Of a stretch of DNA of 64,000 nucleotides, positions 16,309 to 62,216 are shown in pieces. The notes below the pieces were generated by a model. The model had not been told where the DNA came from. It saw only the letters and a program-made list of their open reading frames with translations, and ran no database searches. The DNA is from a virus (taxonomy: Duplodnaviria; Caudoviricetes). Made by a program: the position numbers and the translations under genes. The stretch is taken from positions 1 through 64,000 of the IMG/VR virus record IMGVR_UViG_2882837327_000005; one strand, given 5' to 3'. Numbering within the stretch: the stretch's first letter is position 1; each line of letters begins with the position of its first letter.

Positions 16309-16514
16309 CCCAATGCATGGGGGCTGAAACCCTTTCACCCCCTTCCACGTCACCCCCTTGCCGCCACCCCAGCGCTTACACCCTGTCACCGCCTGAAACC
16401 GACGATGGATCAATCGCGTAGCCCTGCCTGCAACACCTGACACCTCCAGGTGCAACACCACCTGTCACAGACCCTTGTCAGGGTGCCAGCGCCTTCGACC
16501 ATGCTGCCATCATC

Positions 16515-17354
16515 ATGCAGACGCCTCCGAAGATGACGCCCGAGGACTGGGAAGCGCTGATCGCGAAGCTGTTCGCGGAGCCCCAGGAAGGCGTGCCCCA
16601 GGCGACCATCAGCTCCCTGGCGCGGGAGTACGGGATCTCGCGCGCGCTCATCCATGGGCAGCTGAAGAAGCGGAACCTCACCTGGTCCATCGACAGGCAG
16701 GCGGCAAAGAAGGCGAGCCTGGATGAGGAGGCGCAGCACCGGGATCGGATAGCCCAGACCCCTGCCCCTCCCCCCCTTCCCGGCTACCGGCCGCCCGAGG
16801 CTATCCGCGCCCAGGGCGACGCGCTGCGTGAGACCCTCCCCGCCTCCCTGCGCCCTATCCTCGACGCGGCAGCCATCCGGCAGGTGGCGCTGGAGCGGCT
16901 GAAGGAGCGGAACGAGCGCATGGCCGGGCTGGCCGAGCGACTGGTGCATCTGGTGCAGGTGGCGCTGACCACCCCAAAGGACGACGACCAGGTGGGGTTG
17001 ACGAAGAAGATGCAGGCCCTGTCCACCCTGCTGCCAGGGAAGAATGACGGCATCCCGGCGATCGTCGCCTCCATCACCTCCCTGACCAACACGCTGCGGA
17101 TCTCGGAGGCCGGCGTGCTGCGCCTCGAGCTCGACGGGCTGAACGACCGCCATAAGTACGAGAGCGAGAGCGGCGCCCTGGATGGGCTCGGGGCCGAGGG
17201 AGACGACATCGACAGCCTCTCCACCGAGGAGAAGGCCCAGCTGCTGGACGCCATCAATATTCTCGAGGGGACAAGCCGCCGTGCCCCTATCCCCATGCCC
17301 CCGCGCCGTGTCATCGACGTGCGCCCCGATGAAGGAGAAGACGATGCTACCTGA
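16515..17354 (+). CDS. Terminase small subunit-like protein
   Basis: N-terminal HTH (TISSLAREYGISRALI..W), C-terminal DIDSLSTEEKAQL; directly upstream of the TerL genes. Confidence 0.65.
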   Translation: MQTPPKMTPEDWEALIAKLFAEPQEGVPQATISSLAREYGISRALIHGQLKKRNLTWSIDRQAAKKASLDEEAQHRDRIAQTPAPPPLPGYRPPEAIRAQGDALRETLPASLRPILDAAAIRQVALERLKERNERMAGLAERLVHLVQVALTTPKDDDQVGLTKKMQALSTLLPGKNDGIPAIVASITSLTNTLRISEAGVLRLELDGLNDRHKYESESGALDGLGAEGDDIDSLSTEEKAQLLDAINILEGTSRRAPIPMPPRRVIDVRPDEGEDDAT

Positions 17355-17958
17355 GCCGCCGGCCAAGGGGTCGCTGCAGCTGTTCGTGCGGGAGGCATGG
17401 CCGCAGGTGGTGGTGGCGCCGCTCGAGTGGGGCAACGTCCTCGAGAGCATGAGCGAGCAGATTGAGCAGGCTCTCCACGAGCCGGGTACGCCCTGCCTTA
17501 TCGCCTGCCCCACGGCGCGCTGTGGAAAGACCATGCTGATGAGCGTTCTGCTGCCGGCGTGGATCTGGACCTGGGCACCGGCCGCACGCCTGATGACCGT
17601 CGGCGTTTCCGAAAGGGCGGCTCATGCGGACGCCCGCCTCACCCGAGAGCTGCTGCGCAGCGTGTGGTACCGCCGGCGCTGGGGTGAGGGCATCGTTCCT
17701 TTCGCGACATCCAACTTGGCCTTCACCGAGAACAGGGCCGGCGGCTATCGCCGAGCGGTTGGTGTCCGGAGCGCCATAAGTGGCCTGCGTGTCGATGTGG
17801 CGATCGCAGATTGCATCTATCCTTTCGCCTACCCGGGCGCCGAGCGAGGGGAAGCGCGCGACCGCGTGGACACCTGGTGGCAGCAAGAAGCCCTGAAGCG
17901 GGTCGTCCCCGGCGGCCACATGCTGCGCGTCGAAGAAAGCATCCTCGCCACCGCATGA
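17344..17958 (+). CDS. Truncated paralogue of the TerL ATPase domain (no nuclease, degenerate Walker B)
   Basis: Collinear with the downstream TerL N-terminus: SLQLFVREAW/SFKAFVKMAW, SVLLPAWIWTW/SVLFVAWVWTW, SVWYRRRWG/SDWYQARWG. Confidence 0.75.
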   Translation: MLPEPPAKGSLQLFVREAWPQVVVAPLEWGNVLESMSEQIEQALHEPGTPCLIACPTARCGKTMLMSVLLPAWIWTWAPAARLMTVGVSERAAHADARLTRELLRSVWYRRRWGEGIVPFATSNLAFTENRAGGYRRAVGVRSAISGLRVDVAIADCIYPFAYPGAERGEARDRVDTWWQQEALKRVVPGGHMLRVEESILATA

Positions 17959-19565
17959 CCCCTCACGGCCTCCCCTCTGCCGTGAATCATGCCCGACTGC
18001 AGCGCTTCCGCAGCCGGACTGCCTCGCCGCGCGTGAAGCTCGAGGCGCAGCTGGGCCAGGAATCCTTCAAGGCCTTCGTGAAGATGGCCTGGAGCGAGGT
18101 GGACCCTGCGGTCCTGTCCTGGAACTGGCACCTGGACCTGATCTGCGACGAGATGGAGAAGGCCGCGCGCCGCGAGGTGCGGGAAATGGTCATCTGCATC
18201 CCGCCGCGCTCCCTGAAGAGCCAGCTCGTCTCCGTGCTGTTCGTGGCCTGGGTGTGGACCTGGCACCCGGCCGCCAAGTTCATCACCGCGTCCTACGAGA
18301 TGAAGCTCGCCACCCGCGACGCGGTGAAGACCCGCCGCCTGGTGAAGAGCGACTGGTATCAGGCCCGCTGGGGCCCCGCCTCGCCGTACCGCGGCAAGCT
18401 CAGCACGGGCGAGGATCACCCGGGCGTCGCGATCGAGGGCGACCAGGACAACAAGACCTATTACGAGACCACGGCCGGCGGGCACCGCTTCTGCGCGACC
18501 CCGGGCGGCCAGGTCACGGGCCACGGCGCCGACTTCATCCTCGGCGACGACATGAACCATGTGAAGAAGGTCGAGCAGGAGGCCGACCGCGAGAAAGTCA
18601 CGTCCTGGTGGCGTGAGGCCATCCCGTCACGCCTGAACGACCAGGCCTATGGCGTGAAGATGGTGATCCAGCAGCGGACCCATGTGAACGACCTGGCCGG
18701 CGAGTGCATCCGCCTGGGCTACCACAAGGTCGTGCTCCCCATGGAGTTCGAGGCCGACCATCCGGATCGGCACCCCTTGGACCCCCGCAAGGTCGATGGG
18801 GAGGTGCTGCACCCAGCGCGCTGGGTGCAGCGCAATGCCCTGTCCCGATACAAGGCCAACCTGGGCGCCTATGCGGTGGCCGGCCAGCTGCAGCAGCGCC
18901 CAGCCCCGCGCGACGGTGGCATCTTCAAGCGCCACTGGTTCCGCATCGAGGCCATGGCCCCGGCCGAGGTGCTGCAGGGCGGCACGGTGCGGCGCTGGGA
19001 TCTCGCGGCCACGGTGCCGAAGTCTGGCACCGACCCCGATTACACCGCCTCGGTGAAGATGGGGCGCGACCAGTTCGGGCGGGTGTACATCCTGCACGCC
19101 AACCGACTGCGGGAGACGCCCTTCAATGTGGATCTCGCCATCCAGGCCATGGCCAGTCAGGACGGGAACAGCTGCCGCCTCATCCTGCCCCAGGATCCAG
19201 GCGCGGCGGGCGTCGCGCGCATGCAGCAGCAGCAGGCCTTCCTGGCGCCCATCGCCACCGAGTTCGAGCGGGAGACCGGCGACAAGGCCGAGCGAGCCCG
19301 CGGCCTGGCCTCGGCCGCCCAGGCGGGCAACGTCATCCTGGTGCGTGGGGAGTGGAACGACGCCTTCCTCGAGGAGCTGTGCACCTTCCCCGCCGCCGCC
19401 CATGACGACTGGCTGGACGCGGCGGCCGGCGCCTACAGCGCGCTGTTCGGGGGCGCGGACAACATCCTGCAGGCCTATGCCCAGATGCTGCGCGAGGCCC
19501 AGGGCACGGACAGCCATGATCCTGGGTCGGAGCATGTGTCGCAGGGGGTTTATGGGGGCGGGTGA
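17955..19565 (+). CDS. Terminase large subunit
   Basis: IPPRSLKS Walker A, ILGDD Walker B, IQQRTH, WDLA..DYTA, HDDWLDA nuclease motifs. Confidence 0.95.
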   Translation: MTPHGLPSAVNHARLQRFRSRTASPRVKLEAQLGQESFKAFVKMAWSEVDPAVLSWNWHLDLICDEMEKAARREVREMVICIPPRSLKSQLVSVLFVAWVWTWHPAAKFITASYEMKLATRDAVKTRRLVKSDWYQARWGPASPYRGKLSTGEDHPGVAIEGDQDNKTYYETTAGGHRFCATPGGQVTGHGADFILGDDMNHVKKVEQEADREKVTSWWREAIPSRLNDQAYGVKMVIQQRTHVNDLAGECIRLGYHKVVLPMEFEADHPDRHPLDPRKVDGEVLHPARWVQRNALSRYKANLGAYAVAGQLQQRPAPRDGGIFKRHWFRIEAMAPAEVLQGGTVRRWDLAATVPKSGTDPDYTASVKMGRDQFGRVYILHANRLRETPFNVDLAIQAMASQDGNSCRLILPQDPGAAGVARMQQQQAFLAPIATEFERETGDKAERARGLASAAQAGNVILVRGEWNDAFLEELCTFPAAAHDDWLDAAAGAYSALFGGADNILQAYAQMLREAQGTDSHDPGSEHVSQGVYGGG

Positions 19566-19643
19566 CGACCATTTTGTCGGCGTCAACAAAATGGTGGGCG
19601 GGGGTTGCCATGCAGCCGAGTGGTTCGACCATGCTTCCATCAT

Positions 19644-19729
19644 GGAAGGTGGCGCTGGGTTGGCTGGCAAGCGGTCTCGAAAACCGTGCCTACCGCAAGG
19701 TTGAGGGTTCGACTCCTTCACCTTCCGCC
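19644..19729 (+). tRNA. tRNA-Ser(CGA), probable 8/4 type
   Basis: GGAAGGTG/CACCTTCC 8-bp acceptor, GCGGT-CTCGAAA-ACCGT anticodon arm, long V arm, TTCGACT loop, G73; encoded 3' end GCC abuts the next tRNA. Confidence 0.85.
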
Positions 19730-19815
19730 GGAAAGAAGACCGCGCAGGGCGTGGCGCCGCTTGCTAAGCGGTTGGAGCCGAAAGGCTTGGGGTTCGAGAC
19801 CTCTGCTTTCCGCCA
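19730..19815 (+). tRNA. tRNA-Ser(GCT), probable 8/4 type
   Basis: GGAAAGAA/TGCTTTCC acceptor (one mismatch), GCCGC-TTGCTAA-GCGGT, V arm, GGGG-TTCGAGA-CCTC, GCCA end. Confidence 0.8.
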
Positions 19816-19817
19816 GT

Positions 19818-19891
19818 TGGGGCGTAGCTCAGTGGTAGAGTTCTGGTCTCCAAAACCAGCAGCGCAGGTTCGATTCCTGCCGCCCTAGCCA
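19818..19891 (+). tRNA. tRNA-Trp(CCA)
   Basis: Canonical cloverleaf; CTGGT-CTCCAAA-ACCAG; GCCA end. Confidence 0.92.
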
Positions 19892-19950
19892 CTGCTCCCG
19901 TCCCAGTTTCCATTGTATTAGAACTTCCACCTACAGGCGTGGAGGCTTCG

Positions 19951-20154
19951 ATGGCGTTCGTTGTGACTTTCTGGTCGAAAGCTTATGTGGCGCACACGGG
20001 TAAGAGCACCAAAACCTATGAAAGTGCGGCCGAAGCATGGGCGGCAGTCGATGCGCTCATGCGGAGTGACGAGACTGTGGAGATAAGGTCGCCCTCCGGA
20101 CATGAGATTGGATGGGCTGAGCTTAAGATGCTTGCGGAGCGAGAGCAGCATTGA
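19951..20154 (+). CDS. Small hypothetical protein within the tRNA cluster
   Basis: GGAGG RBS; AT-rich promoter-like upstream; lower GC. Confidence 0.6.
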   Translation: MAFVVTFWSKAYVAHTGKSTKTYESAAEAWAAVDALMRSDETVEIRSPSGHEIGWAELKMLAEREQH

Positions 20155-20338
20155 AGGACGGTTGCCCCGCAGCGGACAAGGCTCGGGCCCGTGAGGCAGT
20201 AGGAGATGGTGCGGGAGGTCCATTGGGCCGCTCCACCGCGCCCCTCCGACCCCAAGCCGGGATGGGAAGCGAGTGGCTGACCAGGGGCATCAGAGCGCTC
20301 GGGCTGGAAACGGCCCGGGCGCTTCTGCTATTCAGGGC

Positions 20339-20443
20339 GCGCTGCGGCGGCACGGAAGGACGTGCGAAGCTGTAGGGCGGCGGGTAGGCCCTCGGGAGCC
20401 GAACGAAGCGGCCCAGCCGGTATCAAGCCCGGCACGCAGCGCA
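20339..20443 (+). ncRNA. tRNA-like structured RNA (degenerate class II, GTA, with loop insertion)
   Basis: 8-bp terminal stem GCGCTGCG/CGCAGCGC enclosing D-, anticodon-, V- and T-like arms; no CCA. Confidence 0.4.
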
Positions 20444-20449
20444 AGTTCT

Positions 20450-20526
20450 GGTGCCCTAGCTCAACTGGATAGAGGAGCCCCGTCCTAAGGGGATGGTTCG
20501 GGGTTCAAGTCCCTGGGACACCACCA
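20450..20526 (+). tRNA. tRNA-Arg(CCT)
   Basis: TAGCTCAACTGGATAGAG D arm, CCCC-GTCCTAA-GGGG, GGGG-TTCAAGT-CCCT, ACCA end. Confidence 0.9.
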
Positions 20527-20564
20527 ACCCTGGCGGGCCATCACGCCCGCGCCCGGAGGATGCA

Positions 20565-20738
20565 ATGGCCCACCACAAGCGCGGCCGAGCCCGCAACCGC
20601 CGGGCCGGCTGCAAGCTCTGCAAGCCCTGGAAGGTGACCGGCCATGCCAAGGGGCGGCCGGGTGCCGAGACCATCAGCAGCTATCGCAGCCGCATCGGCA
20701 CTAAGCTGGATCTGAGGGACGCGCTTCGCTGCGACTGA
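20565..20738 (+). CDS. Small basic CxxC protein
   Basis: MAHHKRGRARNRRAGCKLCKPWK; GGAGG RBS. Confidence 0.65.
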   Translation: MAHHKRGRARNRRAGCKLCKPWKVTGHAKGRPGAETISSYRSRIGTKLDLRDALRCD

Positions 20739-20750
20739 GCCCAGGGCGCA

Positions 20751-20948
20751 TCAGGACGCGCCTTCGGCCTCCGGCTCCTCAGGCGGCTGCGCCAACGCCA
20801 CCGGGTCAGCCTCCCCACCTCTGCCGATATTCACCAGCGCGTTGCGCGCCTGGCAGCCGGGGCAGAGGAAGAAGCACCCCTCCTCATCGATCTCGGGATC
20901 CACCGCCCGGAACATGATTTCCAGGCCGCAGTGTCGGCATGTCCACAT
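20751..20948 (-). CDS. Small Zn-ribbon protein
   Basis: CRHC...CPGC; GAGG RBS. Confidence 0.65.
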   Translation of the reverse strand: MWTCRHCGLEIMFRAVDPEIDEEGCFFLCPGCQARNALVNIGRGGEADPVALAQPPEEPEAEGAS

Positions 20949-20957
20949 GCCCAGACG

Positions 20958-21242
20958 CTACCTCTCGGCCTCGGGCGACGCCAGCTTCACGTGCGCTCCC
21001 AGGATCGGCGGCCCGCCTTTCTCGGGAAAGCTCATGGTCGGACCCCGCGCCCTGCACCGAGAGCATGTCAGCCGGTGGTAGAACTCCGATAGATTCATAT
21101 CCGTATCAAGCCCAAATCTGACGATCCATTCCTGGATCCGTGCACGCCGGGTGTGGCTACAGCGACACAGCAGCGAAACCAAAAGATCCCGCCTCCACCC
21201 CAGAGGGTCTATCGGCTTCGGTCGATGGTAGTTCGCTGCCAT
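20958..21242 (-). CDS. SOS-boxed Zn-ribbon protein
   Basis: CRCSH...LTCSRC; probably leaderless behind a LexA-boxed promoter. Confidence 0.7.
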   Translation of the reverse strand: MAANYHRPKPIDPLGWRRDLLVSLLCRCSHTRRARIQEWIVRFGLDTDMNLSEFYHRLTCSRCRARGPTMSFPEKGGPPILGAHVKLASPEAER

Positions 21243-21248
21243 AGTACG

Positions 21249-21263
21249 GAACATAAACGGAAC
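21249..21263 (-). promoter_or_regulatory. Alphaproteobacterial LexA (SOS) box overlapping a TTGCGA-N16-TATGTT promoter
   Basis: GAAC-ATAAACG-GAAC, exact N7 direct repeat. Confidence 0.8.
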
Positions 21264-21538
21264 ACATTATCTCGCAAGGTTGCGCAGGACGATCAGCCGG
21301 CATCTCGCAGCAGCCTGTTGAGGAACATATTCAACTCCCTCAAATGGCTGATCAAATCCCTGTGGGTAAACTCAACCTTTGCTGCAGCTTACCATCCAGC
21401 CGTCTCCCCCCGCCGAGACACATTAAAATGGCGGACGATGACTCTGGGATGGGCTTGGCCCACCTAAGCCGCAAAAAACCGTAAAATGTTACCGTTCTGT
21501 CTGGTTGGGGAGTGCGTCCCTTCCCGTGGGCAAGCAGA

Positions 21539-21553
21539 GAACCAATAGGGAAC
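21539..21553. promoter_or_regulatory. LexA (SOS) box
   Basis: GAAC-CAATAGG-GAAC in an AT-rich intergenic region. Confidence 0.65.
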
Positions 21554-21744
21554 ATGACCACAGCCCGACAAAGGGCCGACAACGCACGCACAGGCGGCGA
21601 CCGGCCGTCATCATTATGAATGAGCATCAAACTCCAGTAGGCGACATTGCCGACCATTCCGGACTCGCTACGACATTGGTCCTATTGTGCGCTCTAAAAT
21701 CCTGATATGAGAATGATCGGCACCCACGAACCCGTGATGAGAAG

Positions 21745-21975
21745 ATGCGCCTAGAAAAGCTCGACATTCTTCCTGCCGAAGATCAGCCACTTTGCCTGTT
21801 TTGGCCCGCCAGAACGCCGGCCGTGTTCTCTTTGCGAGGGCCAGCGCCGCGGCACCGCCAGGGCAGTATGGTCATCCGCCAAGGCGGATCGTCCTACGTG
21901 GTCGATGGCGGCGACGTGTTCATCCTGCCGCCAGTCCCCCGCTGCTTCGTGTCGCCAGAGATGGGGAATGCCTGA
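21745..21975 (+). CDS. Small hypothetical protein
   Basis: TGATG coupling to the next gene. Confidence 0.5.
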   Translation: MRLEKLDILPAEDQPLCLFWPARTPAVFSLRGPAPRHRQGSMVIRQGGSSYVVDGGDVFILPPVPRCFVSPEMGNA

Positions 21976-22445
21976 TGACGAACGCTGCGCTACCGGACGC
22001 GCCCTATGTGGTAGTCGCGGTCACCTATGATGAAGCCACGCTTCACCGCCTGAAGGCACTCGCAAGGCGCCGGCTGCCATTGGGCGAGATTGCAAAGCGC
22101 ATGGGCCGGTCGCTCGAGGATGTTCGCTACATCGCGGACACCAACCGTATCATGGTCGTGCGGGACAACCGCACAGGCGGCCCCCGCACCGTCCTGGCCT
22201 CGCACCATAGCCCCGCCGCCCATGCCGCCGACCGGCGCCTGGAATGGCTCTCAGCCGTGGCTCACCGGAGCCGACTTGCATCCGCGCCGCGGTTGAGCGA
22301 GCAAGAGCAGGCAGACCTCATCGCGCAGCATCTCGCCAGCAAGGGTGTGACCCATTGCCCCTCCGTGCACCTCGAAGGCTCCGCCGCCAACGAAATCGTG
22401 CCCTCGAAGCTGAGGGGCCGAGGATCCTTGCAAGTCGAACTGTAG
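21975..22445 (+). CDS. HTH protein, GcrA-like N-terminus
   Basis: YDEATLHRLKALARRRLPLGEIAKRMGRS; C-terminal LIAQHLASKGVTHCP. Confidence 0.55.
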   Translation: MTNAALPDAPYVVVAVTYDEATLHRLKALARRRLPLGEIAKRMGRSLEDVRYIADTNRIMVVRDNRTGGPRTVLASHHSPAAHAADRRLEWLSAVAHRSRLASAPRLSEQEQADLIAQHLASKGVTHCPSVHLEGSAANEIVPSKLRGRGSLQVEL

Positions 22446-22471
22446 CCGAGGAAGCCGGCGCCCGCGCCGAT

Positions 22472-22741
22472 ATGGCGGCCTTCGACGCCCTGCCGCCTGA
22501 AGTGCGCCAGGTGCTGCGGAACCTGCTCTACAAGCCGATCTGCCCCAAGGTGCTGACCGCCGTCTGGAAGATGTCTGGCGTGCCCGCCGAGGTGATCGCC
22601 GCGATCATGGCAGGCGAAGCGATCAAGACCGAGGCGAGATTGGTGGCGGAGCTGGACGGCAAGTTCATCTGCCAGGGCTCCCGCTCACCCCACGCCGCGG
22701 CCCAGGCCACCATCCTGCGGGCGGAGCCGCTTACCGGCTAG
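22472..22741 (+). CDS. DUF6525-like small protein
   Basis: MAAFDALPPEVRQVL; start uncertain. Confidence 0.5.
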   Translation: MAAFDALPPEVRQVLRNLLYKPICPKVLTAVWKMSGVPAEVIAAIMAGEAIKTEARLVAELDGKFICQGSRSPHAAAQATILRAEPLTG

Positions 22742-22807
22742 ACGCCGCGCCAAACCTCCGACCATGCCAATGAAGCGGCACCTCTGCCGCGTTGGTCGGA
22801 GTAAGCC

Positions 22808-24553: not shown

Positions 24554-24555
24554 AC

Positions 24556-24768
24556 ATGGCGGCTTGTGCGCATCATTGGGTGCAGAGCTGGAAGCACTTC
24601 GACCATGCCCATCACCACGAGGAATGCAGCAGATGCGCCACCCGGCGCGTGCTGCGGCAGGCCGACACCAAGGTGATGTGGGACGTGACCTGGCTGGAGC
24701 GGCGCGGCGAACCCGAGCATCCGACTGCCGGCGATCCCATTGTCATCCGGCCGGGAGGCTTCGCATGA
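24556..24768 (+). CDS. Small Cys/His-rich protein
   Basis: CAHHW..CSRC; coupled. Confidence 0.55.
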   Translation: MAACAHHWVQSWKHFDHAHHHEECSRCATRRVLRQADTKVMWDVTWLERRGEPEHPTAGDPIVIRPGGFA

Positions 24769-28749: not shown

Positions 28750-28843
28750 GTCGCGCGACGATCCGGCAAGATAGCCCTTCGCAGACCGTTTGCGCTTTCT
28801 GAAAACCCGCGACCATGACGGTGGAAGTCAGTCGGGGGCTTCC

Positions 28844-29569: not shown

Positions 29570-29580
29570 GGGAGACCATC

Positions 29581-35035: not shown

Positions 35036-35202
35036 CCTTCACGCAATCCGCCGGGGCCTTCTCCGGCCTCACCGCCACTGACCTCGCAGTGCCCGCCACA
35101 CGGGCACTTGCCAGGAAGAGGCGTCTTTCAACCATGCTGGCAAGGCTCGCGGCGCTGAAGCGGCAATCGGGGCAGAGCGCCCTTCGGAAAGAGGACAGAC
35201 AC

Positions 35203-36585: not shown

Positions 36586-36772
36586 ATCTCATTTCGCGGT
36601 CTGATTTCCTCTAGACCGCGTGCTGATACTCTGAAATGCCCTAGGTAGCAGATGGCTCCTGGGGCATTTTCGCATCCGGTGTCGTGGCCCTTGCGGCCAG
36701 CTTACGTCCCGTATTCCACGCCTAGGGACGAGGCGGCGTTGGCCCCCCGAGGGGGCTCGAGCGTCATCGGAA

Positions 36773-40477: not shown

Positions 40478-40893
40478 GCGATACCCTGCTGCGCATCCAG
40501 CGCGCCTTCGAGAACCGCGTGAAGCTGCTGGCTAATGAGCCGCTGGTGCAGTGGGAAGGCATGGCATTCGAGCCTCGCACGGGCAAGCCGTGGATCTCCA
40601 CCAGGATGACGGGCCGCGACGTCTCGCCCATGGGCAGCTTCCAGGTCACGCCGCACCTCTGGCGCGGCAGCTACACCATCCTGGTCAAGCACCCGGCCGA
40701 TGAGGGCCTGCGCCCCGCCTATTCTCGGGCACTGGCCATCCGCGACTTCTTCCCGCGTGGCAGCCCGGACATCGCGGACGGCCCGGTGAAGATCACCATC
40801 ACCAATGTCGGGCTGCCGCCTGACTTCGTCACCGCCGGCTGGCGCACTCAGCCCGTGGCCATCAGCTGGTTTTACGAGGAGCCGCCGCAGTGA
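40474..40893 (+). CDS. Tail terminator-like protein (DUF4128-like)
   Basis: VQWEGMAFEP..A..IRDFFPRG..W..PVAISW. Confidence 0.7.
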   Translation: MSDTLLRIQRAFENRVKLLANEPLVQWEGMAFEPRTGKPWISTRMTGRDVSPMGSFQVTPHLWRGSYTILVKHPADEGLRPAYSRALAIRDFFPRGSPDIADGPVKITITNVGLPPDFVTAGWRTQPVAISWFYEEPPQ

Positions 40894-41189
40894 TCGTCAT
40901 GATCAAGAGCTATTTCCGTGAGGGTCGCTGGAGCTTCTACGAGGGCGAGACCTTCCACGCCGAGGCGATGTGCGACGAACGTGGCATCGCCATGGACGAC
41001 TTCCAGAAGCACGTCGCTCTGGGCGAGGTGGAGGTCACCGAGGACAACGATCCGGCGGCCGACCCGCTGGCCGACGACGTGCTGCTGGCCGTGGCCGGCG
41101 CGGCGATCCCTGGCGTCGCGCCCGAGCGCGATGAAGGCGCCGAACAGCCCCTTGCCGAGGATGCCCCTCCTTCGACCATGACGGAGTGA
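40890..41189 (+). CDS. Small acidic protein
   Basis: GTGA coupling. Confidence 0.6.
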   Translation: MIVMIKSYFREGRWSFYEGETFHAEAMCDERGIAMDDFQKHVALGEVEVTEDNDPAADPLADDVLLAVAGAAIPGVAPERDEGAEQPLAEDAPPSTMTE

Positions 41190-47043: not shown

Positions 47044-47159
47044 GCGGGGGGTAAGGCGGCGCCCCAAACTGAGCGCCGCCTCGGAAGTCCTGCGACCCCT
47101 CCGACCGCAGGCAAAGGCACCTTACGGTCTGCTATCTTGATTGCAAGCAAGCAAATGTT

Positions 47160-47696
47160 TCAGTTTCTGCGCGGCGTGGGTCTGCCTTGGCGTGTCGCGG
47201 CACTGGGAGGATCGATTGGCCGGTCCAGCTGAGCGAAAGCTCTGTCATTGGCAGAGGCGGCAGACAGTGCTTCGCTGAAGCCCGCACTGGAAATCGTCCC
47301 GTTGTGGGGCCCTACTTCTAGAATGACACTGCCGCCGCCTCGTAATTCGCGGATGGCCGCTACTGTGAAGGGCTGAGGTGCCATGCACAGCGACTCCTCG
47401 AAGCACCTGCCCGCAAACACCTCACCAGTGCCGACGATCCGCGCCCTCCAGGTCTCAGGCCACTGAATACTGGTGCCGATCAACGCGCCTCCGGGCCGCA
47501 GCACTAAGCTCAGCCAGGCGAAGCCGACATCGCGCACTTCGATCGCGCACGTTTGCCGATCGAGGATGCGATCTTGCCGGCATTCGTGACGCCAAGTTGG
47601 GTTTGCGGCACCGGTTCGTGGCATGACAGGTTGCGGGGCAGTGGGAACGCAGCCCATGAGAGCCACACAAAGCAGTAATAGATAACGGACCGTCAT
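47160..47696 (-). CDS. Lipoprotein moron (candidate superinfection exclusion)
   Basis: Lipobox LMGC; antisense to the late operon; lower GC; AT-rich upstream. Confidence 0.65.
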   Translation of the reverse strand: MTVRYLLLLCVALMGCVPTAPQPVMPRTGAANPTWRHECRQDRILDRQTCAIEVRDVGFAWLSLVLRPGGALIGTSIQWPETWRARIVGTGEVFAGRCFEESLCMAPQPFTVAAIRELRGGGSVILEVGPHNGTISSAGFSEALSAASANDRAFAQLDRPIDPPSAATRQGRPTPRRN

Positions 47697-47846
47697 TCCA
47701 ACCCTCTTACAATTCAGATTTATTTGAGATAAACGTTCTATTGAATTGATAAATTAGATTTATTTTGATATATTATTAGTTGGGCCAGTTAGGTAATTGC
47801 CACCCAACTGGCCCGTTCCTTCCAACATTACTGAAAGGAGCGTCTC

Positions 47847-48599
47847 GTGGAGACCCACGAAACGTATACGCGCGCGCGCCCTACGCGCAAGCGCGAAGGC
47901 CCGCTCATGCCCGGAGACGAGGCCCTGCTCAGGACCTCTGATGGCAAGACCCTCAAGGTCGCTGTCCTCGAGGAAACTGACCTGGTCATCGCGCGGATGC
48001 CGCGCCAGGCCGAGAAGCCGCCCTGCTCCGAAAGGAGACGCGAGACCTCCCGTGAAAACGGGAAGCTCGGCGGCCGCCCCCGCACCGTCAGGGAGCCCAC
48101 GGCCCCTCTACCCGAGGAGCCAGAGGATGAGCCCGCACCCCGAGCCTTCCGGGCCGCTGACGTGCTGCCGGTAACGGACATGCTCCGTGCCGGCGTCTGG
48201 GAGACGGAGGCCCACTCGAACGCGAACTTCGGCGTTCTGGCCATCGTGCCCGGCTTCGACGCCCAGGCCGCCATGCTCGTGACCGACCACCATGTCGGTT
48301 CCCGGGCGCGGCCAGGCGCCATGGTCGGCATCTCCCTCGGCCCTGTCGATGACGGGCAGCTGGTGGTGGTCGAGCGCCGAGACGACCTGCACCGCCGCGA
48401 GCTCACGCTCCGGCTGCTGACGATCGAGAAGGACACCGTCCGTCTCTCGTTCCTCGGCGATGTGCCGCCCCAGGCGGCGCAGCTGGTCTGGCCCCGTGCC
48501 GTGACCAATAACCTGGTAGCTGGCCTGCCCATCCCCCTGGATGGCGGCGAGCTCCGGATCCTCGGCAGGGTGACCATCACCTCGAGGATCGAGGGATGA
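47847..48599 (+). CDS. Basic ENGKLGGRPR motif plus catalytically dead S24 (LexA/CI-like) domain
   Basis: VLPVTDMLRAGVW (Ala-Gly site), MLVTDHHV (GDSM position), ELTLRLL (TxK position), ILGRV. Confidence 0.6.
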   Translation: METHETYTRARPTRKREGPLMPGDEALLRTSDGKTLKVAVLEETDLVIARMPRQAEKPPCSERRRETSRENGKLGGRPRTVREPTAPLPEEPEDEPAPRAFRAADVLPVTDMLRAGVWETEAHSNANFGVLAIVPGFDAQAAMLVTDHHVGSRARPGAMVGISLGPVDDGQLVVVERRDDLHRRELTLRLLTIEKDTVRLSFLGDVPPQAAQLVWPRAVTNNLVAGLPIPLDGGELRILGRVTITSRIEG

Positions 48600-48817
48600 C
48601 ACGCCCGCCTGCGGCCCGCGAGGGCCTGTGGGCGAGCGCCGCCGGCCCCCGCTTCGTGCAGATGCTGGGCCCACACCCCGACCTTCCCGACATGATCCTG
48701 ATCTCCTGCGACGAGCAGGAACTCACCGTGCCGGCGTCGGCCGTCCACGCGCTGCCGGAAGGCACGCGTGAACTCGTCCGCTGGGCCATGGAGCCCGCGC
48801 CCGACTGGGACCGTTAA
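48596..48817 (+). CDS. Small hypothetical protein
   Basis: ATGA coupling; followed by a terminator. Confidence 0.6.
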   Translation: MTRPPAAREGLWASAAGPRFVQMLGPHPDLPDMILISCDEQELTVPASAVHALPEGTRELVRWAMEPAPDWDR

Positions 48818-48833
48818 CTCGGCCCCAGACGAC

Positions 48834-48872
48834 AAGAAGCCCCTCAGCCAGTGATGGCTGGGGGGCTATTTT
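48834..48872. terminator. Intrinsic (possibly bidirectional) terminator
   Basis: AGCCCCTCAGCCA-GTGA-TGGCTGGGGGGCT-ATTTT. Confidence 0.75.
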
Positions 48873-48873
48873 G

Positions 48874-48907
48874 TTGACATTTCTGCCTTATCGTTCTATA
48901 TTTGTTC
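48874..48907 (+). promoter_or_regulatory. Sigma70 promoter with a LexA box over the -10
   Basis: TTGACA-N17-TATATT; GTTC-TATATTT-GTTC at 48893-48907. Confidence 0.85.
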
Positions 48908-49179
48908 CGAAACAGTCTGCTCTGTTTTCCTCCCCGGATTGGATTCCAGCTGTCGCCCTCGGACGACGCGGCCCTGCATTTTTCACATCATGAAATTTTG
49001 CGTGCCGTCCCAGCGCATCGCGATTTCCGCGATGAATCAACCGCATGCTAACTGCGACATTGAAATGTGAAGGTCGTGCGAGCACATCGCTCGCCCGGCC
49101 TCAATTTTGCTGCGTTATGCGAGCATTGATTTTCCAACGCGGGGATGCACACATGCGCCTCAGAAAGGGAAAAACTAGC

Positions 49180-49413
49180 ATGTCTACGGAGACCAAAGCC
49201 GCAACCGTCACCTTCAAGGCCGAGTTTGATAGCGAGGCCAACATGTGGTGGGTGTCGGAGTGCTCCTATCCGGGTGTCAACGCCGAGGCGCCCACGCTGG
49301 ACCGCTTGTATAAGAAGGTCCAGGCCGTGGTCGCTGATCTGCGCGAGATCAATGGCGACACCGCGCCTGCCGGCATGATGCAGATGTCGGCGGAGATGCC
49401 GATGGCTGCCTGA
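49180..49413 (+). CDS. HicB-like antitoxin (DUF1902), no DNA-binding domain
   Basis: AEFDSEANMWW..PGVNAEAPTLDRL; adjacent to HicA. Confidence 0.75.
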   Translation: MSTETKAATVTFKAEFDSEANMWWVSECSYPGVNAEAPTLDRLYKKVQAVVADLREINGDTAPAGMMQMSAEMPMAA

Positions 49414-49426
49414 TAGGCCGCCGCCA

Positions 49427-49621
49427 ATGGCGAGCTATGATCGGCAGATCGAGAAGCTTCTAAAGGACGCTGGATGTCAGTTCGAGCGTCCCGGAAAAGG
49501 AAGCCACAGCATTTGGCGTAATCCCGCCACCAACCAGACCTTCGCCGTTTCCCATGACGTCAAAACCAAGGGAACGGCAAACAAGATCCTGAAGGACGCT
49601 GGCCTGCCCAAGGCCTTCTGA
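49427..49621 (+). CDS. hicA: HicA-family mRNA interferase toxin
   Basis: LLKDAGC..GKGSHSIW..TANKILKDAGL. Confidence 0.9.
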   Translation: MASYDRQIEKLLKDAGCQFERPGKGSHSIWRNPATNQTFAVSHDVKTKGTANKILKDAGLPKAF

Positions 49622-49624
49622 CCC

Positions 49625-49659
49625 AGAGCCCCGGAGCCTCTTCGCTCCGGGGCTTTTTT
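49625..49659 (+). terminator. Intrinsic terminator
   Basis: AGAGCCCCGGAGC-CTCTTC-GCTCCGGGGCTTT-TTT. Confidence 0.85.
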
Positions 49660-49749
49660 GCATTTTCTGCACATAAGTCGGAGCCACCAGCGGGCCTTGC
49701 GCCCCCTGATAGCCCGCGACCATGACGGAGACGGAGACCCCGCCCCGCC

Positions 49750-50178
49750 ATGACCGTCAACATTGGCCCCGTTACGATCTACCCGGATGGCACCGCCACC
49801 TGGAGCGGGGCCACGCCCAGCTACATCGGCACCCAGCCGGTGTGGCAGCCGCCGCGATCGCCCGACGCTCCGGTGGAGGGCGACGAGGCCCCCGAGCTCG
49901 TGAAGCACCGTTTCAACGACGGCTACGTCATGCGGTCGCCCAAGGGCCTGAACCACGTGACGATGAACGTGAACCTCAGCTTCTCGAACATCTACGCCGC
50001 GGAGAAGGACGCCATCCTCGGCTTCCTGCGCGGGCGTGGTGGCTACCAGCCCTTCTGGTGGCAACAGCCCAACGAGCTCATGCGGCGATGGATCTGCGAG
50101 CGCTGGGCGGGCCGGCAGCTGGGCCCTGACCGCTGGCAGGTCACCGCCGCCCTCACCCGTGATTGGAGCCCCAGCTGA
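49750..50178 (+). CDS. Minor tail protein, lambda gpM-like
   Basis: RFNDGY..R..KGLN..ILGFL..RGGYQPFWW. Confidence 0.85.
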   Translation: MTVNIGPVTIYPDGTATWSGATPSYIGTQPVWQPPRSPDAPVEGDEAPELVKHRFNDGYVMRSPKGLNHVTMNVNLSFSNIYAAEKDAILGFLRGRGGYQPFWWQQPNELMRRWICERWAGRQLGPDRWQVTAALTRDWSPS

Positions 50179-52896: not shown

Positions 52897-52936
52897 CCGC
52901 TGGACGCCGCCGGAAACCGGCGACCATGCAGGATGA

Positions 52937-56836: not shown

Positions 56837-56847
56837 GGGGAACCCGA

Positions 56848-57590: not shown

Positions 57591-57954
57591 GTTGGGTCGG
57601 CCCGCGGCCGATCTCCGTGTGGCCGAGGAGGCCAGAATCGACGCCGAGGCACACGCAGCCGCGGAGGCTGTGCGTCCCGCGATCAGTACCCGCATGGATG
57701 CGGCCAGGCTGGAACAGGCTCGAACCGCCGCGCTGTTGGCAGACGACTATGCCTCGACGGTGCCGCTGATCGCCGCGGTGCAGCTTTCGGGCACCCTCGC
57801 GCAAAAGGCAGCAGCGGTGCTGGCCGCCGCCGCGGATACCAACCGGCGTCTCACCATCATCGAAACCGCGCGGCTGGCGGCGAAGGCCCGACTGCGTGCG
57901 GCCGTGACCCCCGCGGAAATGCGCCTGGTGCGCCTCGAGATCTCCGTTGACTGA
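57580..57954 (+). CDS. Tail fibre assembly-like protein
   Basis: Ala-rich helical; IETARLAAKARLRAA. Confidence 0.65.
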   Translation: MRFELGRPAADLRVAEEARIDAEAHAAAEAVRPAISTRMDAARLEQARTAALLADDYASTVPLIAAVQLSGTLAQKAAAVLAAAADTNRRLTIIETARLAAKARLRAAVTPAEMRLVRLEISVD

Positions 57955-58093
57955 TCTTGATCCCGGCCTGACGAGGCGGAAATCGCCTCGGCCACGGTGA
58001 TCTTCTGGTCCTAAGGGAGCCACTTGCGGAAATTGTGAGCCGGCGACCATGCCAGAGATGACGCAGCAGGTGCGTCCGGCATGGGGTGCTACA

Positions 58094-58429
58094 GTGAGCC
58101 AGCCCGCAACCTACGATCTCGTGTTCGATCCGGAGAGAGGCCTCACCGAAAGCTTCTTCCTTCATGACCAGGAAGGGCGGCCTCTCGATCTCGAGGGCGC
58201 TTCGGCGGAGATGAGGATTTCCGACCAAGCCGGCATCCCCCTGCTTACCCTGACAGTTGGAGGCGGCCTGACCATCGAGACGGGAAGGTCTCGACTGTCG
58301 ATCGGCCTGGGCCCCTCCGCAGCATCTGGATTGCGCCCGGGCATCCAGCGGTACGAATTGAATCTCGCACTGCGGTCTGGCGACCGGCCGCTCCTGGCTG
58401 GGCGCCTTCTGGTTCGGGAGGGGGCATGA
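58094..58429 (+). CDS. Fibre adaptor (BppU-N-like)
   Basis: PLDLEGASAEMRI..YELNL..LLAGRLLVREG. Confidence 0.7.
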   Translation: MSQPATYDLVFDPERGLTESFFLHDQEGRPLDLEGASAEMRISDQAGIPLLTLTVGGGLTIETGRSRLSIGLGPSAASGLRPGIQRYELNLALRSGDRPLLAGRLLVREGA

Positions 58430-61400
58430 GCGACATTTATGTCGTACCCGACCGCCCGGATGCGACCCTGGCGACGCCGGGCGAGCGCGCAGACGCTTTG
58501 GTGGCGCTGAAGGCACGCGAGGCCGCCCAGAAAGCCGCCGTCACGGCGCAGTCGTCCGCAGCCACCGCTCTGGACGCCCAAGCGCAGACGGAAGCAGCTC
58601 TGCCCGGGGAGGTAGCCGCCCGTGCTGCCGGCGACGCCGCGCTCGGCGCCTCGATCTTCGATCTGGCGTCGGCGGTGCCAAGCATGGCGCCGGTGCAGTC
58701 CGTGGCGGGCCAGATGGGCGCCATCGACGACCAGACACTGCGCGTCGCACTCGGCATCGGCACTTTCCGCACGAGGCTTGCCGCTATTGTCGCCGCCATC
58801 CCCTTGGTGGTCACGTCGATCACCACGCTTGGCTTCAGCCAGATGGATGACCGAGGGGGGGCCGCATATCAGCGGGTTTCGAGCGCCACCCCTGGCGGTT
58901 TCACGGATGCTACTGGCGGGACCTGGGCGATTGTCGGGGAGAAGCTCACTCCCTATCAGTTTGGCGCCCTGGGCAACGGCGGGAATGACCGCACGGCGCT
59001 GCTGGACTGGTGGGCGGCCATTCATGTCGCGTCCACGCAATTCGGAGCACAGTACCCGGCCTCTCAGGCGCGCGTTGGCATCGTTCCGCCGGCGAGGTTC
59101 CGTGCCAGCCCTGTCCTGCAATTGAGTTCCGAAAGCACAGGCACCACGATCATCGGCAGCGGCCCGGCCAGCATGCTCGACGGCGTCGAACTGCATGTGG
59201 GCGGAAACCGCGCGCGCGTCAGCAACGTCGGCCTGACCGGTGCCTCCGCCTGGGGGCTCCGCCTCTACGGGCGATATCGCCGTCAAGCTCAGATCGACAA
59301 CGTCTGGGTACGCGACAAGCTGTATGCGTACTCCATCGAGGGGCCCGGGAGCGGCGACCTCTGGATCAATGTCAAGGCCGAGAAGTCGACCTGCGGCCTG
59401 CTCTGCGTCGACACGCTGAATAGTCAATTCGTCAACTGCGAGTTCGACCAGCCGGTGGCGACCGTGGCGGGGCTGACCGGCGGCCTCGGCGGCGTCGGAA
59501 TCAGGCAGTTGGCCGGTGGGCAGCTCAAGCTGTCCAACTGCTCGGCGGCCGGCATTCGCGCCTCGATGCTCATCACCTCCCAGACGAGGCGACAGAGCTA
59601 CGAGTGCTATTACTCACAGCTGACCCTGGCGGGGGTAGGGCGCTCGCGGATCCTGCCTATCCTCGGAGTGACCGATAACGGCAGCGGGCTAGCGAGGCTG
59701 CAGACCAGTCAGGCCTGGGCCGTAAGCAGCATCGCTGATCGGGGCGCCCGCTTCATCGGCCGATCGCCGCAGGGCGCGCGGCTGACCATTACCGGAAGCG
59801 GTGGCTCCATCACGAGCCTGAAGGCCGGCTTCTCCGAGCTGCTGCCCCTCGTGGGCGATGTTCCGACTTCAATTGCATGGCAGGGCAGCGCCGCGGCAAC
59901 GGCGCAGGCGATCGCGGCGGCCATCACCACCGGTACCGCTACGCACTGTTGGGCCGCCCTGGCGGTGGGCGACGATCTGATCGTCGTTGCTGTCGACCAG
60001 TACCGGCCCATGGACAACCTGACGCTGACCATTTCCGGGATCGGAGGGGCAGGCAGCGCTTCGGCCGCCTTCTCGACCATGGCGCACGCCGACATCGGCT
60101 TCTCCGTGTCGCAGAACAGCGCCGCTGGATCGATTACCTCGCTTCTGGCGGGCACCACCCAGCTGCTGAGCGCCCCGGTCTCCTGGGTCGAGGATGGGGT
60201 CACGCTGCCACCGACATCAGCGGTTCAGACGGCGATCAATATCGCGGCCTCCATCAACGCCGGCCAGGCGGTCCATGGATACTTCGCATACGCGATTAGC
60301 GGGCGTGTCTGGCTTATGGCCCCAGTTGCTGATGGCTTGGCGGCACACTGGCGCAGCCTCACGCCGACGATCAGCGGCGGCTTGTCCATCTCTTTCCCCA
60401 CCTACGCCGCGGTACAGACCACGGCCGCCGCGGATTTCGTGAAGGGCGACAGCCTCGGGATCAGCGGCAGCACGGGGTACGACGGCATCGCCGAGGTCCT
60501 GCAGCGCGAGGATGCCAGTACCTTCGGCATCTTCCTGACCGTTGCCGGCACCATGACGCCTGGCGGTTCCGCCTGGCACCCCAACCGGCTGATCGATGGC
60601 GACCGCAGCCTTCTCGTGACGTCGGGCCTGAGCGCCTACGACGGGACAGTGGACATCGTCGGCGCAGGCGACACATGGGTCGACATCAACCGCGCCTACA
60701 CCGCCGATGCGACTGGCACCTTGGCCGCTTGGGGCAACGATCTCGAGGTCCTCGTCGACGACGGCGCGCTCAGGTGCAACGACCTGTTCTGGCACGGCGG
60801 GAACATCAACTACACTTTCATCGCCTCGGGCTACAATTTCCGCTTCAAAGGAACGCGGCTCAAGTCGCACATTTGGTTTGATCCGCAGATCTCAACGATC
60901 CTCCACATTGCTCGCATCTCGATCGAGGGCGACATGCGGGGCCGGGACGCGGACGCCCTGACCGACACAAAGATCGGAGGCGCGATCAAAGGCTGGAGTG
61001 CCTTCGGGCACCGTGACGACAGCGGGGCAGCATCCGCAGGCACCGGCTATCTGCTCTTTGCTGTGCCCGACGCGACGGCCGGACGGCAGAACAATCGGGC
61101 TGCCTCCTTCAACGCCCAGCGCATTCGTGAAAACGGCACCATCGAATGGACCGTAGGCGGCTTCAGCCAGACGCTTAACTATGCCCAGCTGAGTGTCTTT
61201 GGTCACCGACTGAGAAGGCCAACAAACCTCCCGACGCCCACGAACACTATCGACGCCGTGGCAGCGGGCGCTGGTAGTCCAGCCCTGATAGCCGCTGTGG
61301 GGGAATCGAACGCCGGCCTGGCCCTGGCTGCAGCCGGCGCGGGCGATCTCGACCTGCGGTCGGGCGGAGGCACCAGCCGCATTGCGCGGTTCAGATCTGC

Positions 61401-61701
61401 GCCCGGGGCGCCCGCCGGACCGAACTACCTCCAGGTCACGGCCGGCGCCAGCGGCAGCCCGGTGGTCGTCACCGCAAATGGCACCGACGCCAATCCGGCC
61501 CTCCACCTGGGAACCGTCGGCAATGAGGTGCGCTTCCTCGGCATCCCGCGCCTGCCGCTCTACCTTCGGTCAACGCTGCCGAGCCCGACTGGGGCTCCGC
61601 GCATCGTGGCCATCAGTGACCCGGCCGCCGGCAAGTCGCGCGTCGTCTTCGACGCTGGCAGTTGGCGCTACTTCGACGACAGCGTCGTCGCCCTGACCTG
61701 A
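58426..61701 (+). CDS. Tail fibre/tailspike with beta-helix (pectate-lyase-like) region
   Basis: VQSVAGQMG, DDRGGAAY, TPYQFGALGNGGNDRTAL; internal duplicated domain. Confidence 0.75.
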   Translation: MSDIYVVPDRPDATLATPGERADALVALKAREAAQKAAVTAQSSAATALDAQAQTEAALPGEVAARAAGDAALGASIFDLASAVPSMAPVQSVAGQMGAIDDQTLRVALGIGTFRTRLAAIVAAIPLVVTSITTLGFSQMDDRGGAAYQRVSSATPGGFTDATGGTWAIVGEKLTPYQFGALGNGGNDRTALLDWWAAIHVASTQFGAQYPASQARVGIVPPARFRASPVLQLSSESTGTTIIGSGPASMLDGVELHVGGNRARVSNVGLTGASAWGLRLYGRYRRQAQIDNVWVRDKLYAYSIEGPGSGDLWINVKAEKSTCGLLCVDTLNSQFVNCEFDQPVATVAGLTGGLGGVGIRQLAGGQLKLSNCSAAGIRASMLITSQTRRQSYECYYSQLTLAGVGRSRILPILGVTDNGSGLARLQTSQAWAVSSIADRGARFIGRSPQGARLTITGSGGSITSLKAGFSELLPLVGDVPTSIAWQGSAAATAQAIAAAITTGTATHCWAALAVGDDLIVVAVDQYRPMDNLTLTISGIGGAGSASAAFSTMAHADIGFSVSQNSAAGSITSLLAGTTQLLSAPVSWVEDGVTLPPTSAVQTAINIAASINAGQAVHGYFAYAISGRVWLMAPVADGLAAHWRSLTPTISGGLSISFPTYAAVQTTAAADFVKGDSLGISGSTGYDGIAEVLQREDASTFGIFLTVAGTMTPGGSAWHPNRLIDGDRSLLVTSGLSAYDGTVDIVGAGDTWVDINRAYTADATGTLAAWGNDLEVLVDDGALRCNDLFWHGGNINYTFIASGYNFRFKGTRLKSHIWFDPQISTILHIARISIEGDMRGRDADALTDTKIGGAIKGWSAFGHRDDSGAASAGTGYLLFAVPDATAGRQNNRAASFNAQRIRENGTIEWTVGGFSQTLNYAQLSVFGHRLRRPTNLPTPTNTIDAVAAGAGSPALIAAVGESNAGLALAAAGAGDLDLRSGGGTSRIARFRSAPGAPAGPNYLQVTAGASGSPVVVTANGTDANPALHLGTVGNEVRFLGIPRLPLYLRSTLPSPTGAPRIVAISDPAAGKSRVVFDAGSWRYFDDSVVALT

Positions 61702-61712
61702 TTGGAGCCATC

Positions 61713-62093
61713 ATGAACCCGACCCGCGTCGCTGAAGAACTGCTCATCCGCTTTGACGATGTCGGCGCGGTTCGGGGCGTGCACTTCAAGGAGATCGACG
61801 TCTACTGGAAGGCGGACGGGACCGTCGATTTCCGCCGTGATGTTGACCCGCGTCCCATTTCGTTGATGGAGGCCGTTGACCTGCTGGGAGAAGCCTCGGG
61901 GCCACTTGTGGCGCTGGCAACCGCGCAGAGAGCCGAGATTGAAGGTCAGCAGGCAGAAATCTTCGCGGTTCGCCAGGCGCTGACAGCCGAGCAGAGCCGC
62001 TCTCTTGGTTTGGAAGAGCAGATCGATTTTCTGATGCGGGAGCGAGAGGCATTGCAGGAGCGCCTGAGCTTGCTGTCGCCTGCGGCCGGGTAG
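61713..62093 (+). CDS. Hypothetical protein with coiled coil
   Basis: GGAG RBS; ELLIRFD..G.H. Confidence 0.65.
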   Translation: MNPTRVAEELLIRFDDVGAVRGVHFKEIDVYWKADGTVDFRRDVDPRPISLMEAVDLLGEASGPLVALATAQRAEIEGQQAEIFAVRQALTAEQSRSLGLEEQIDFLMREREALQERLSLLSPAAG

Positions 62094-62216
62094 CATGCGA
62101 GGGGAAGCCACTCGACAACCTGCGCAGAGAGCCGAGATTGACCGCTTGCGGAAATTTCGGACCGACGACCATGCCGGAGGTGACGCAGCAGTTGCGTCGG
62201 GCATGGAGTACTTGCC

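Follow-up and report, generated by a model that had tools for sequence, protein, structure and literature searches.

Phages switch on their late genes in several well-described ways. Lambda relies on a single late promoter together with the Q antiterminator. Some phages encode sigma factors of their own, as Bacillus phage SPO1 does with gp28 and gp33/34, and T4 with gp55, working with gp33 and the gp45 clamp. Others appropriate the host sigma or supply an activator: MotA/AsiA at the middle promoters of T4, Ogr of P2, C of Mu, and CII of lambda, whose sites read TTGC-N6-TTGC. The staphylococcal RinA protein is an activator of a phage late promoter (PMC3152322). Phage-specific late promoters are therefore known already, but almost every characterised case is from one of a handful of model phages infecting E. 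coli or Bacillus. The signal described here belongs to a large temperate phage of an Acetobacteraceae-type alphaproteobacterium, the late genes of which lie in about a dozen units under one high-information motif. The window analysed is a stretch of 64,000 nucleotides (nt), positions 1 to 64,000 of IMG/VR record IMGVR_UViG_2882837327_000005; it corresponds to G000:C43:364395-428394, in a host genome of 5.28 Mb and 69% G+C. Coordinates are those of the window unless a contig (C43, C5, C46) is named.

The motif consists of two boxes, cTTGCS and CGACCATGM, separated by 15-16 bases, and all its sites are on the + strand. At the -35 position the box takes the form cTTGCSn or TrGACGC; in the place of the -10 is a long, nearly invariant box, aaCCnnC GACCATG M CGG. 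When 13 copies are aligned, ACCATG never varies, nor does the T of TTG; conservation begins about 7 nt ahead of the G of GACCATG and ends 11 nt past it, and the total information is about 30 bits. Spacing, in nt, is measured from the -35 T to the first base of (G/A)ACCATG. By this measure there are two subclasses, one with TTC before GACCATG and a spacing of 22, the other with rAAACCnnC before GACCATG and a spacing of 21. On balance, the motif is probably a class of late promoter belonging to the prophage, to be read by host RNA polymerase with a specificity factor that the phage itself would encode. The sites are as follows, each labelled as a copy of this putative promoter.

16475..16505, + strand: copy with spacing 22, TTGTCA-N16-GACCATGCT, before the terS-like gene
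19605..19635, + strand: copy with spacing 22, before the tRNA-Ser/Trp/Arg cluster
22739..22768, + strand: copy with spacing 21, TAGACG-N15-GACCATGCC, before the portal gene 22808
24580..24609, + strand: partial copy after the portal gene, with a perfect TTCGACCATGCC box and a TTG 25 nt upstream, not 21-22 (about 3 nt too far)
28790..28819, + strand: copy with spacing 21, before the protease block 28844
35108..35138, + strand: copy with spacing 22, the AACCATG variant, before the scaffold-like gene 35203
36691..36721, + strand: degenerate candidate, cTTGCGG-N16-TTCCACGCC, before the major capsid gene, judged by eye and below the scoring threshold
41152..41182, + strand: best-scoring copy, before the major-tail-type gene 41219
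49697..49726, + strand: copy before the distal tail genes (49750, gpM-like)
52901..52930, + strand: copy TGGACG-N15-GACCATGCA, before the gpJ-like gene
58024..58053, + strand: copy before a small open reading frame (ORF) and the fibre gene
62146..62175, + strand: copy before the presumed lysis block 62217
9792..9820, + strand: weak copy, TTCCAG-N15-AACCATGG, in the early/middle region

Ten of these are full sites: nine are intergenic, and one (41152) falls within the final 12 codons of the gene 40890-41189. The partial sites are 24580, 9792 and 36691. An earlier note, made from the letters of the window, had listed nine main sites; all nine stand where it placed them, 21 or 22 nt separating the -35 T from (G/A)ACCATG, and to these we add the tenth, 41152-41182, which it overlooked. 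Its weak copy at 9792 is plausible, the gene behind it probably beginning at ATG 9866, after AGGAGG. The copy it proposed for the capsid gene, at 36612, is a poor match and was dropped as a member of the family; the degenerate copy at 36691 fits better. The 58024 and 62146 sites lie in the two copies of a duplicated cassette of about 70 nt. The 'peptide' that these cassettes seem to share reflects the duplication at the DNA level and was set aside.

The motif is enriched, and it is placed where promoters would be. A loose pattern, T[TGA]G-N3-N15/16-[GA]ACCATG, has 11 matches on the + strand of the window and one on the - strand; in 300 dinucleotide shuffles the mean was 0.52 and the maximum 5. 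Nine of the 11 + strand matches are wholly in non-coding DNA, which makes up 11.6% of the window, and always upstream of + strand gene blocks; a match at 6030 is inside a gene, by chance.

It is also specific to the phage. Under leave-one-out scoring of 10.5 million genome positions, all the sites come out between rank 1 and rank 71. Host positions scoring at least 18 bits are all in coding frames except C5:364 and a weak site, C46:152267; the genome-wide scan found the motif before no host gene, and none of the ten host sigma genes has a copy close by. Inside the prophage, the motif is limited to the late region. A strict pattern, CTTGCG-N15/16-CGACCATG, gave single, chance-level matches only in IMG/VR, and in 400 genomes of the family the pattern had background counts only, with no cluster like the one in the host genome G000.

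The sole other non-coding site of comparable score in the genome is C5:364, on the - strand, in an island remnant (locus L003, G000:C5:1-660). It reads TTGCCG-N15-GACCATGCC, and lies directly downstream of tRNA-Ser(gct), with CAGTGTGCCGGGGT repeated three times in direct orientation ahead of it; a 63-amino-acid ORF, cut by an insertion sequence element at the contig end, comes next. The locus may be what is left of an integrated element or satellite that answered to the late factor of the phage.

That the motif acts on transcription, not on translation, is the conclusion to which its context points. The 19605 copy precedes a tRNA gene, so that its role cannot be translational only: tRNA-Ser has its first base at 19644, 17 nt past the G of GACCATG. 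Two protein genes begin at about the same distance without a ribosome-binding site, the terS-like gene (ATG 16515, 18 nt after that G) and the gpJ-like gene (ATG 52937, 15 nt after it). For the other downstream genes the leader is 32-73 nt long and usually has a Shine-Dalgarno sequence, the one at 49750 being doubtful. The most likely start of transcription is 12-15 nt past the G of GACCATG, which would give two genes leaderless mRNAs and a tRNA precursor that begins just upstream of the mature 5' end. The geometry thus fits starts at or just before the gpJ-like ATG, as the earlier note had supposed, and likewise at the terS-like ATG and tRNA-Ser. Upstream of the 49697 copy is one further feature that bears on the question:

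49625..49656, + strand: strong intrinsic terminator, a 13-base-pair (bp) stem and T run, closing an inserted block

It ends 40 nt before the 49697 copy; the distal tail genes would therefore need re-initiation. The form of the motif argues in the same direction, with two boxes, a variable spacer and some 30 bits of information, far more than ordinary sigma-70 promoters hold.

One might still suppose that the motif is no promoter, and serves instead as a signal in RNA, for processing or translation, or as a DNA site for packaging, replication or recombination. It does contain an ATG, and at some sites it lies in a hairpin with the downstream ribosome-binding region. This supposition is very improbable. 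Besides the copy before a tRNA gene, the architecture of two boxes at a fixed distance with a free spacer is that of a promoter; the sites match no Rfam family, and most have no hairpin. The ATG of the motif is out of frame or not used; as a start codon it was rejected, being out of frame at 49718 and 62167.

The hairpins themselves are easier to understand in terms of transcription. At the portal copy the fold spans 22755-22807 (-25.6 kcal/mol, z = -4.8), and in read-through RNA the box CUCCGACCA can pair with UGGUCGGAG, the ribosome-binding site of the portal gene. An analogous pairing, CCAUGCC/GGCAUGG, is predicted in the fibre (58040-58095, z = -2.0) and lysis (62162-62217, z = -2.5) cassettes; in the lysis copy the CCATGCC of the box can pair with GGCATGG beside the ribosome-binding site. 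Four other sites showed no fold of the box with the ribosome-binding region. Where the box pairs with that region, only transcripts begun inside the hairpin would be freely translated, and, as judged from these predicted folds, the arrangement would make sense only if transcripts do begin there.

Relatives keep the layout and, in part, the letters. The nearest, L011, is from a Rhodovarius metagenome-assembled genome (MAG), with a portal protein 54% identical. It retains the motif at both orthologous sites covered, the portal copy reading TGGACG-N15-CACCATGCC and the protease-block copy, at 8933, TTGAAC-N15-GACCATGACGG, while the spacers have diverged. A second, G401 (IMGVR_UViG_3300049811_000692, 105 kb, portal 51% identical), has collinear late genes and no ACCATG box. 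In its place is a variant, cTTGMSc-N15-CCGCCAYGGTG, at five orthologous sites, before the terS, portal, protease-block, scaffold and gpM homologues; the distance from T to box is again 21. Both lineages have a putative promoter for each module and agree in the -35 box, the spacing and a CCAY core, while each has its own flanks around the -10 box, which points to a specificity factor evolving with the phage. With two relatives keeping the motif or its variant at the same boundaries, the proposal of the earlier note holds up well: the late region appears to be split into many units, each under the same phage-specific signal.

In 2.4 Mb of genome and IMG/VR portal-homologue loci (portal identity at most 49%), the exact motif was absent save in L011, under a strict score that would therefore miss one-letter and variant forms. 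Metagenome loci held no closer relative; megablast against GenBank phages found no close relatives, and neither did the portal protein alone as query against the genome and viral contig sets. Another relative, L095, has in two of its gaps (1-95 and 691-801) a common G+C-rich element of about 45 nt (…CCCCCTSGRTCGACGGGC…CCCGGGGGCT…).

Who, then, reads the motif? At -35, the phage sites agree with host promoters of the sigma-70 type: TTG is invariant or nearly so, and boxes of the form TTGCSN or TrGACG stand beside host examples such as TTGACG-N17-CTACAT and CTTGAC-N17-CTAGAT. At -10, where the host has CTAnAT after 17 +/- 1 bp, they do not agree, and no site passes a sigma-70 consensus scan. Measured against a TATAAT-like box, GACCAT agrees at position 2 (A) and positions 5-6 (AT) and nowhere else, and it stands behind a spacer of 15-16 bp.

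A first alternative builds on what is kept. The sites would be weak promoters for the housekeeping sigma (TTGCSN, 15-16 bp, GACCAT), the invariant bases would bind a phage repressor or some other protein, and control would be negative. GACCAT does retain the A at -11 and the T at -7, the -35 box is like the TTGACG and CTTGAC of the host, and conservation reaches past the usual sigma contacts. We consider this quite unlikely all the same. A 15-16 bp spacer with three of six -10 matches would make a very poor sigma-70 promoter for genes whose products are needed in quantity; the box is neither palindromic nor paired with a repeat; and the prophage has a different operator-like sequence, limited to early regions. 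This is the palindrome CACAT-N4-ATGTG, of which there are six copies in the prophage, eight in the genome and none in the late region:

598..611: operator-like palindrome in the early promoter region before the primase operon
C43:441102, 442265, 449485, 453475 and 455402: the other prophage copies

They are always in A+T-rich gaps of early regions, one of them beside the gene for a CI-like repressor, and the palindrome is probably the operator of that protein. The early-type gaps of L011 and G401 hold similar palindromes.

A second alternative looks to the heat-shock sigma. Promoters for RpoH (sigma-32) in E. coli read CTTGAAA...CCCCATnT. In Rhodobacter sphaeroides, TTG is conserved in RpoHI and RpoHII promoters, and a C just upstream of it is over-represented in those dependent on RpoHI (PMC3441632). 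The present host has RpoH-type promoters of the form CTTGnAAC-N15-CCAT(T/C)T before two hsp20 genes and at several other non-coding sites; the groES and dnaK promoters differ both from the motif and from the hsp20 type. The earlier note had raised an alternative, RpoH-like sigma as one possibility; in this reading a host alternative sigma, for example one of two RpoH-like paralogues, would read the motif without any phage factor and tie the late genes to host stress. The cTTG box and CCAT core are common to both kinds of site, the terS copy of G401 reads CCCCCAT, and the prophage has yielded no sigma of its own. This remains unlikely, however, because the agreement stops at the cores. CCAT lies 23 or 24 nt along in the phage sites and 22 in the host RpoH-type sites, an excess of 1-2 nt measured against a host motif roughly defined from a handful of promoters, with clpB and dnaK aligning poorly. 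The conserved final T of CCATnT is replaced by C or A in 13 of 13 copies, and the host promoters have neither the invariant CGA that precedes the core nor the invariant G that follows it. No host gene has the motif, the regions upstream of groES, dnaK, hsp20 and clpB included. The -10 box differs among related phages, and a lysis operon under heat shock alone would be hazardous for the lysogen. As for the sigma factors of extracytoplasmic function (ECF), the -10 box contains CGAC, the -35 box contains no AAC, no cognate sigma is found in the prophage, and the ECF sigma genes of the host have no copy of the motif nearby.

A factor encoded by the phage would probably be required, because the box is unlike the -10 of either housekeeping or heat-shock promoters of the host, and because the motif is absent from host promoters. 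Several points weigh against this reading. Sigma70_r2 and Sigma70_r4_2 have no match in the prophage at E <= 10, and some 80 prophage proteins scanned against Pfam and PHROG included no annotated late regulator or activator; with no sigma or activator recognised, the proposed factor has no recognised gene. The two bases that GACCAT keeps (-11 and -7) are those most needed by sigma-70, so that direct reading by a host sigma is possible, and the CTTG and CCAT cores do resemble those of RpoH-type promoters. Moreover, the major capsid gene has no good copy of the motif, and the motif or its variant has been seen in only three phages. Homologues of gp55 and gp33 did not surface in PHROG scans of 30 proteins, in which no dedicated search for them was made.

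The continuous conservation from about -22 to -1, with its high information, is also reminiscent of promoters for single-subunit polymerases, and a phage-encoded RNA polymerase of an unrecognised type could in principle read the motif. This is the most improbable of the explanations considered. PF00940 (T7-type RNA polymerase) has no match in the genome, a search without a positive control, as there was none in the control genomes either; the large unassigned proteins sit in the head and tail modules and have homologues in ordinary relatives; and the invariant TTG at -35 points to a contact of the sigma type.

If the factor is a small protein of the phage, one gene deserves mention as a weak candidate:

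21975..22445, + strand: gene for a helix-turn-helix (HTH) protein of 156 amino acids

Its product has an N-terminal three-helix HTH and a conserved C-terminal module, KGVTxCPxVHLEG, which recurs in proteins with sigma-region-4-like or HTH_23 N-termini. The AlphaFold2 model is confident, a three-helix HTH and two further helices, and the fold is generic, with nothing in the PDB matching it at E <= 0.001; Pfam (E <= 0.01) and PHROG gave no match to the protein either. The earlier note had called it GcrA-like and a candidate activator. The family label has to be given up, since PF07750 (GcrA) matches nothing in the window at E <= 10, where the host's own GcrA copies score 1e-34 to 1e-14, and no member of the GcrA family was detected in the prophage; the candidacy survives, weakly. 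The family is tiny, four proteins by word search and about ten by exhaustive HMMER. Among 246 portal-homologue loci the HTH protein and its downstream neighbour each turn up in L011 alone; G401 has a 36%-identical homologue of the HTH protein after terL. All three phages with the motif or variant therefore carry the protein, yet they are also simply the closest kin. A second protein, 15871-16308, encoded just upstream of the first putative late promoter, was set aside: it belongs to no family, its Atlas model is of low confidence, and the contig of its one weak relative in IMG/VR lacks the motif.

A bolder version of the proposal can be put together from these pieces. A small unclassified phage protein, best represented by 21975-22445, would re-aim the host polymerase; the -10 box of the roughly 30-bit promoter would co-evolve with it; the protein would found a new family of sigma-like or sigma-appropriating factors; and pairing of the box with the ribosome-binding site would add a translational lock at several sites. 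Taken as a whole this is a tentative suggestion, possible but somewhat doubtful.

The more general reading, of a late promoter class dependent on a phage factor, asks for less. The -35 box stays close to that of the host, while a special box takes the place of the -10. The putative factor could be an unrecognisable sigma-like protein, or could redirect the host sigma to these sites. Under the motif would come the genes for packaging, head, tail, fibre and lysis as well as the tRNAs. Dependence on the factor would keep these late genes, the lysis operon included, silent in the lysogen, and about a dozen units would be switched on together. Promoter activity, the start point, the need for a phage factor and the late timing are all inferred here from letters and their arrangement.

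The setting of the motif can be described more fully. The phage is a temperate, siphovirus-like prophage of 99.9 kb (99,895 bp) in a Rhodovarius genome, the closest portal relative likewise being a Rhodovarius MAG, and it is bounded by a 50-bp direct repeat:

369-418: attL, the left copy of the 50-bp repeat
C43:464608-464657: attR, the right copy, forming the 3' part of tRNA-Thr
C43:463077-464474, - strand: integrase gene, adjoining the intact tRNA-Thr

With attL at 369-418, the ORF at 1-369 belongs to host DNA. Early and middle genes occupy 671-16308 on the + strand and include a primase, a MarR-like protein and many without assignment. Late genes follow, also on the + strand, from 16.4 kb to about 3 kb beyond the end of the window: terS-like, a TerL paralogue, TerL, three tRNAs, portal, head proteins and capsid, then tail, gpJ-like, fibre and presumed lysis genes. 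The part of the prophage beyond the window has genes for ThyX, a GapR-like protein, RtcB, SSB, the CI-like repressor, DnaB, ERF, the integrase and a radical-SAM protein, as well as a DNA polymerase III beta-clamp and a 560-amino-acid C5-cytosine methylase (listed at C43:445553-446704 and 437043-438725).

Promoters of sigma-70 consensus are found only in a block inserted between the tape-measure gene and the distal tail genes (47100-49660; the promoters fall within 47.1-49.6 kb):

47746: sigma-70 promoter, TTGATA-17-TATATT with TG
48874: sigma-70 promoter, TTGACA-17-TATATT
48838-48867 and 49625-49656: strong terminators of the block

The block looks like a moron expressed from the prophage. Some other stretches of the late region are also of interest. 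The TerL paralogue is a 209-amino-acid ORF (17329-17958) between the terS-like gene and terL, a diverged relative of the N-terminal region of TerL; both have a WxWTW...RWG stretch. Between the tRNA cluster and the HTH gene, 21000-21800 is 50-60% G+C within a phage of 68% G+C and has no ORFs other than short ones on the - strand; perhaps the stretch is an insert of foreign origin, or perhaps it does not code. At 16388-16470, just ahead of the first putative late promoter, are two CTGTCAC repeats and a palindrome, CACCT-CC-AGGTG, which could be an additional regulatory site or part of a packaging site.

What makes the system worth pursuing is the combination of a strong signal with no recognisable sigma or activator, and a sister phage that has the same layout and a different box. 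That pairing makes the system directly testable, and its study could uncover a new way to redirect bacterial RNA polymerase. The consensus is also of practical use in annotating this group, where it can mark late operons, leaderless starts of genes and islands under phage control; the copy beside tRNA-Ser on another contig is an example, perhaps an element that listens to this phage.

Set beside the known systems, the locus resembles each in part. It shares with lambda a temperate siphovirus-like genome and lambda-like tail genes (gpM, gpL and gpJ types), but has some twelve internal promoter copies, with terminators followed by a new copy where lambda reads through. Phages of the RinA type have one late promoter, before terS; this one has about a dozen. 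From RpoH promoters it takes the cTTG at -35 and the CCAT core in the -10 region, while differing from the host's own in a spacing 1-2 nt longer, a replaced final T and the added CGA...G(C/A) flanks. ECF-sigma promoters are similar in their two high-information boxes, the CGAC that opens the -10 and TTGCG-like letters at -35; the phage -35 is without AAC, and neither a whole nor a split sigma was found in the prophage. The late promoters of T4 consist of TATAAATA only, at -10, with no -35 requirement; the sequence of the present box is another, and it is joined to a host-like TTG. The gp45 clamp of T4 has a counterpart of sorts in the beta-clamp encoded outside the window, which nothing ties to transcription. 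As in SPO1 and T4, many copies of one phage-specific consensus head the late blocks, the -10 is unlike that of the host, and the signal is absent from host genes; the difference is that this prophage has no detectable sigma-like gene. With MotA/AsiA, Ogr, C, RinA and CII the proposed system would have in common a small phage protein that opens promoters otherwise ignored, several units together. In those systems, however, the phage element lies at or upstream of the -35 and the -10 is of the host type; here the arrangement is reversed, and it is the -10 box that is invariant.

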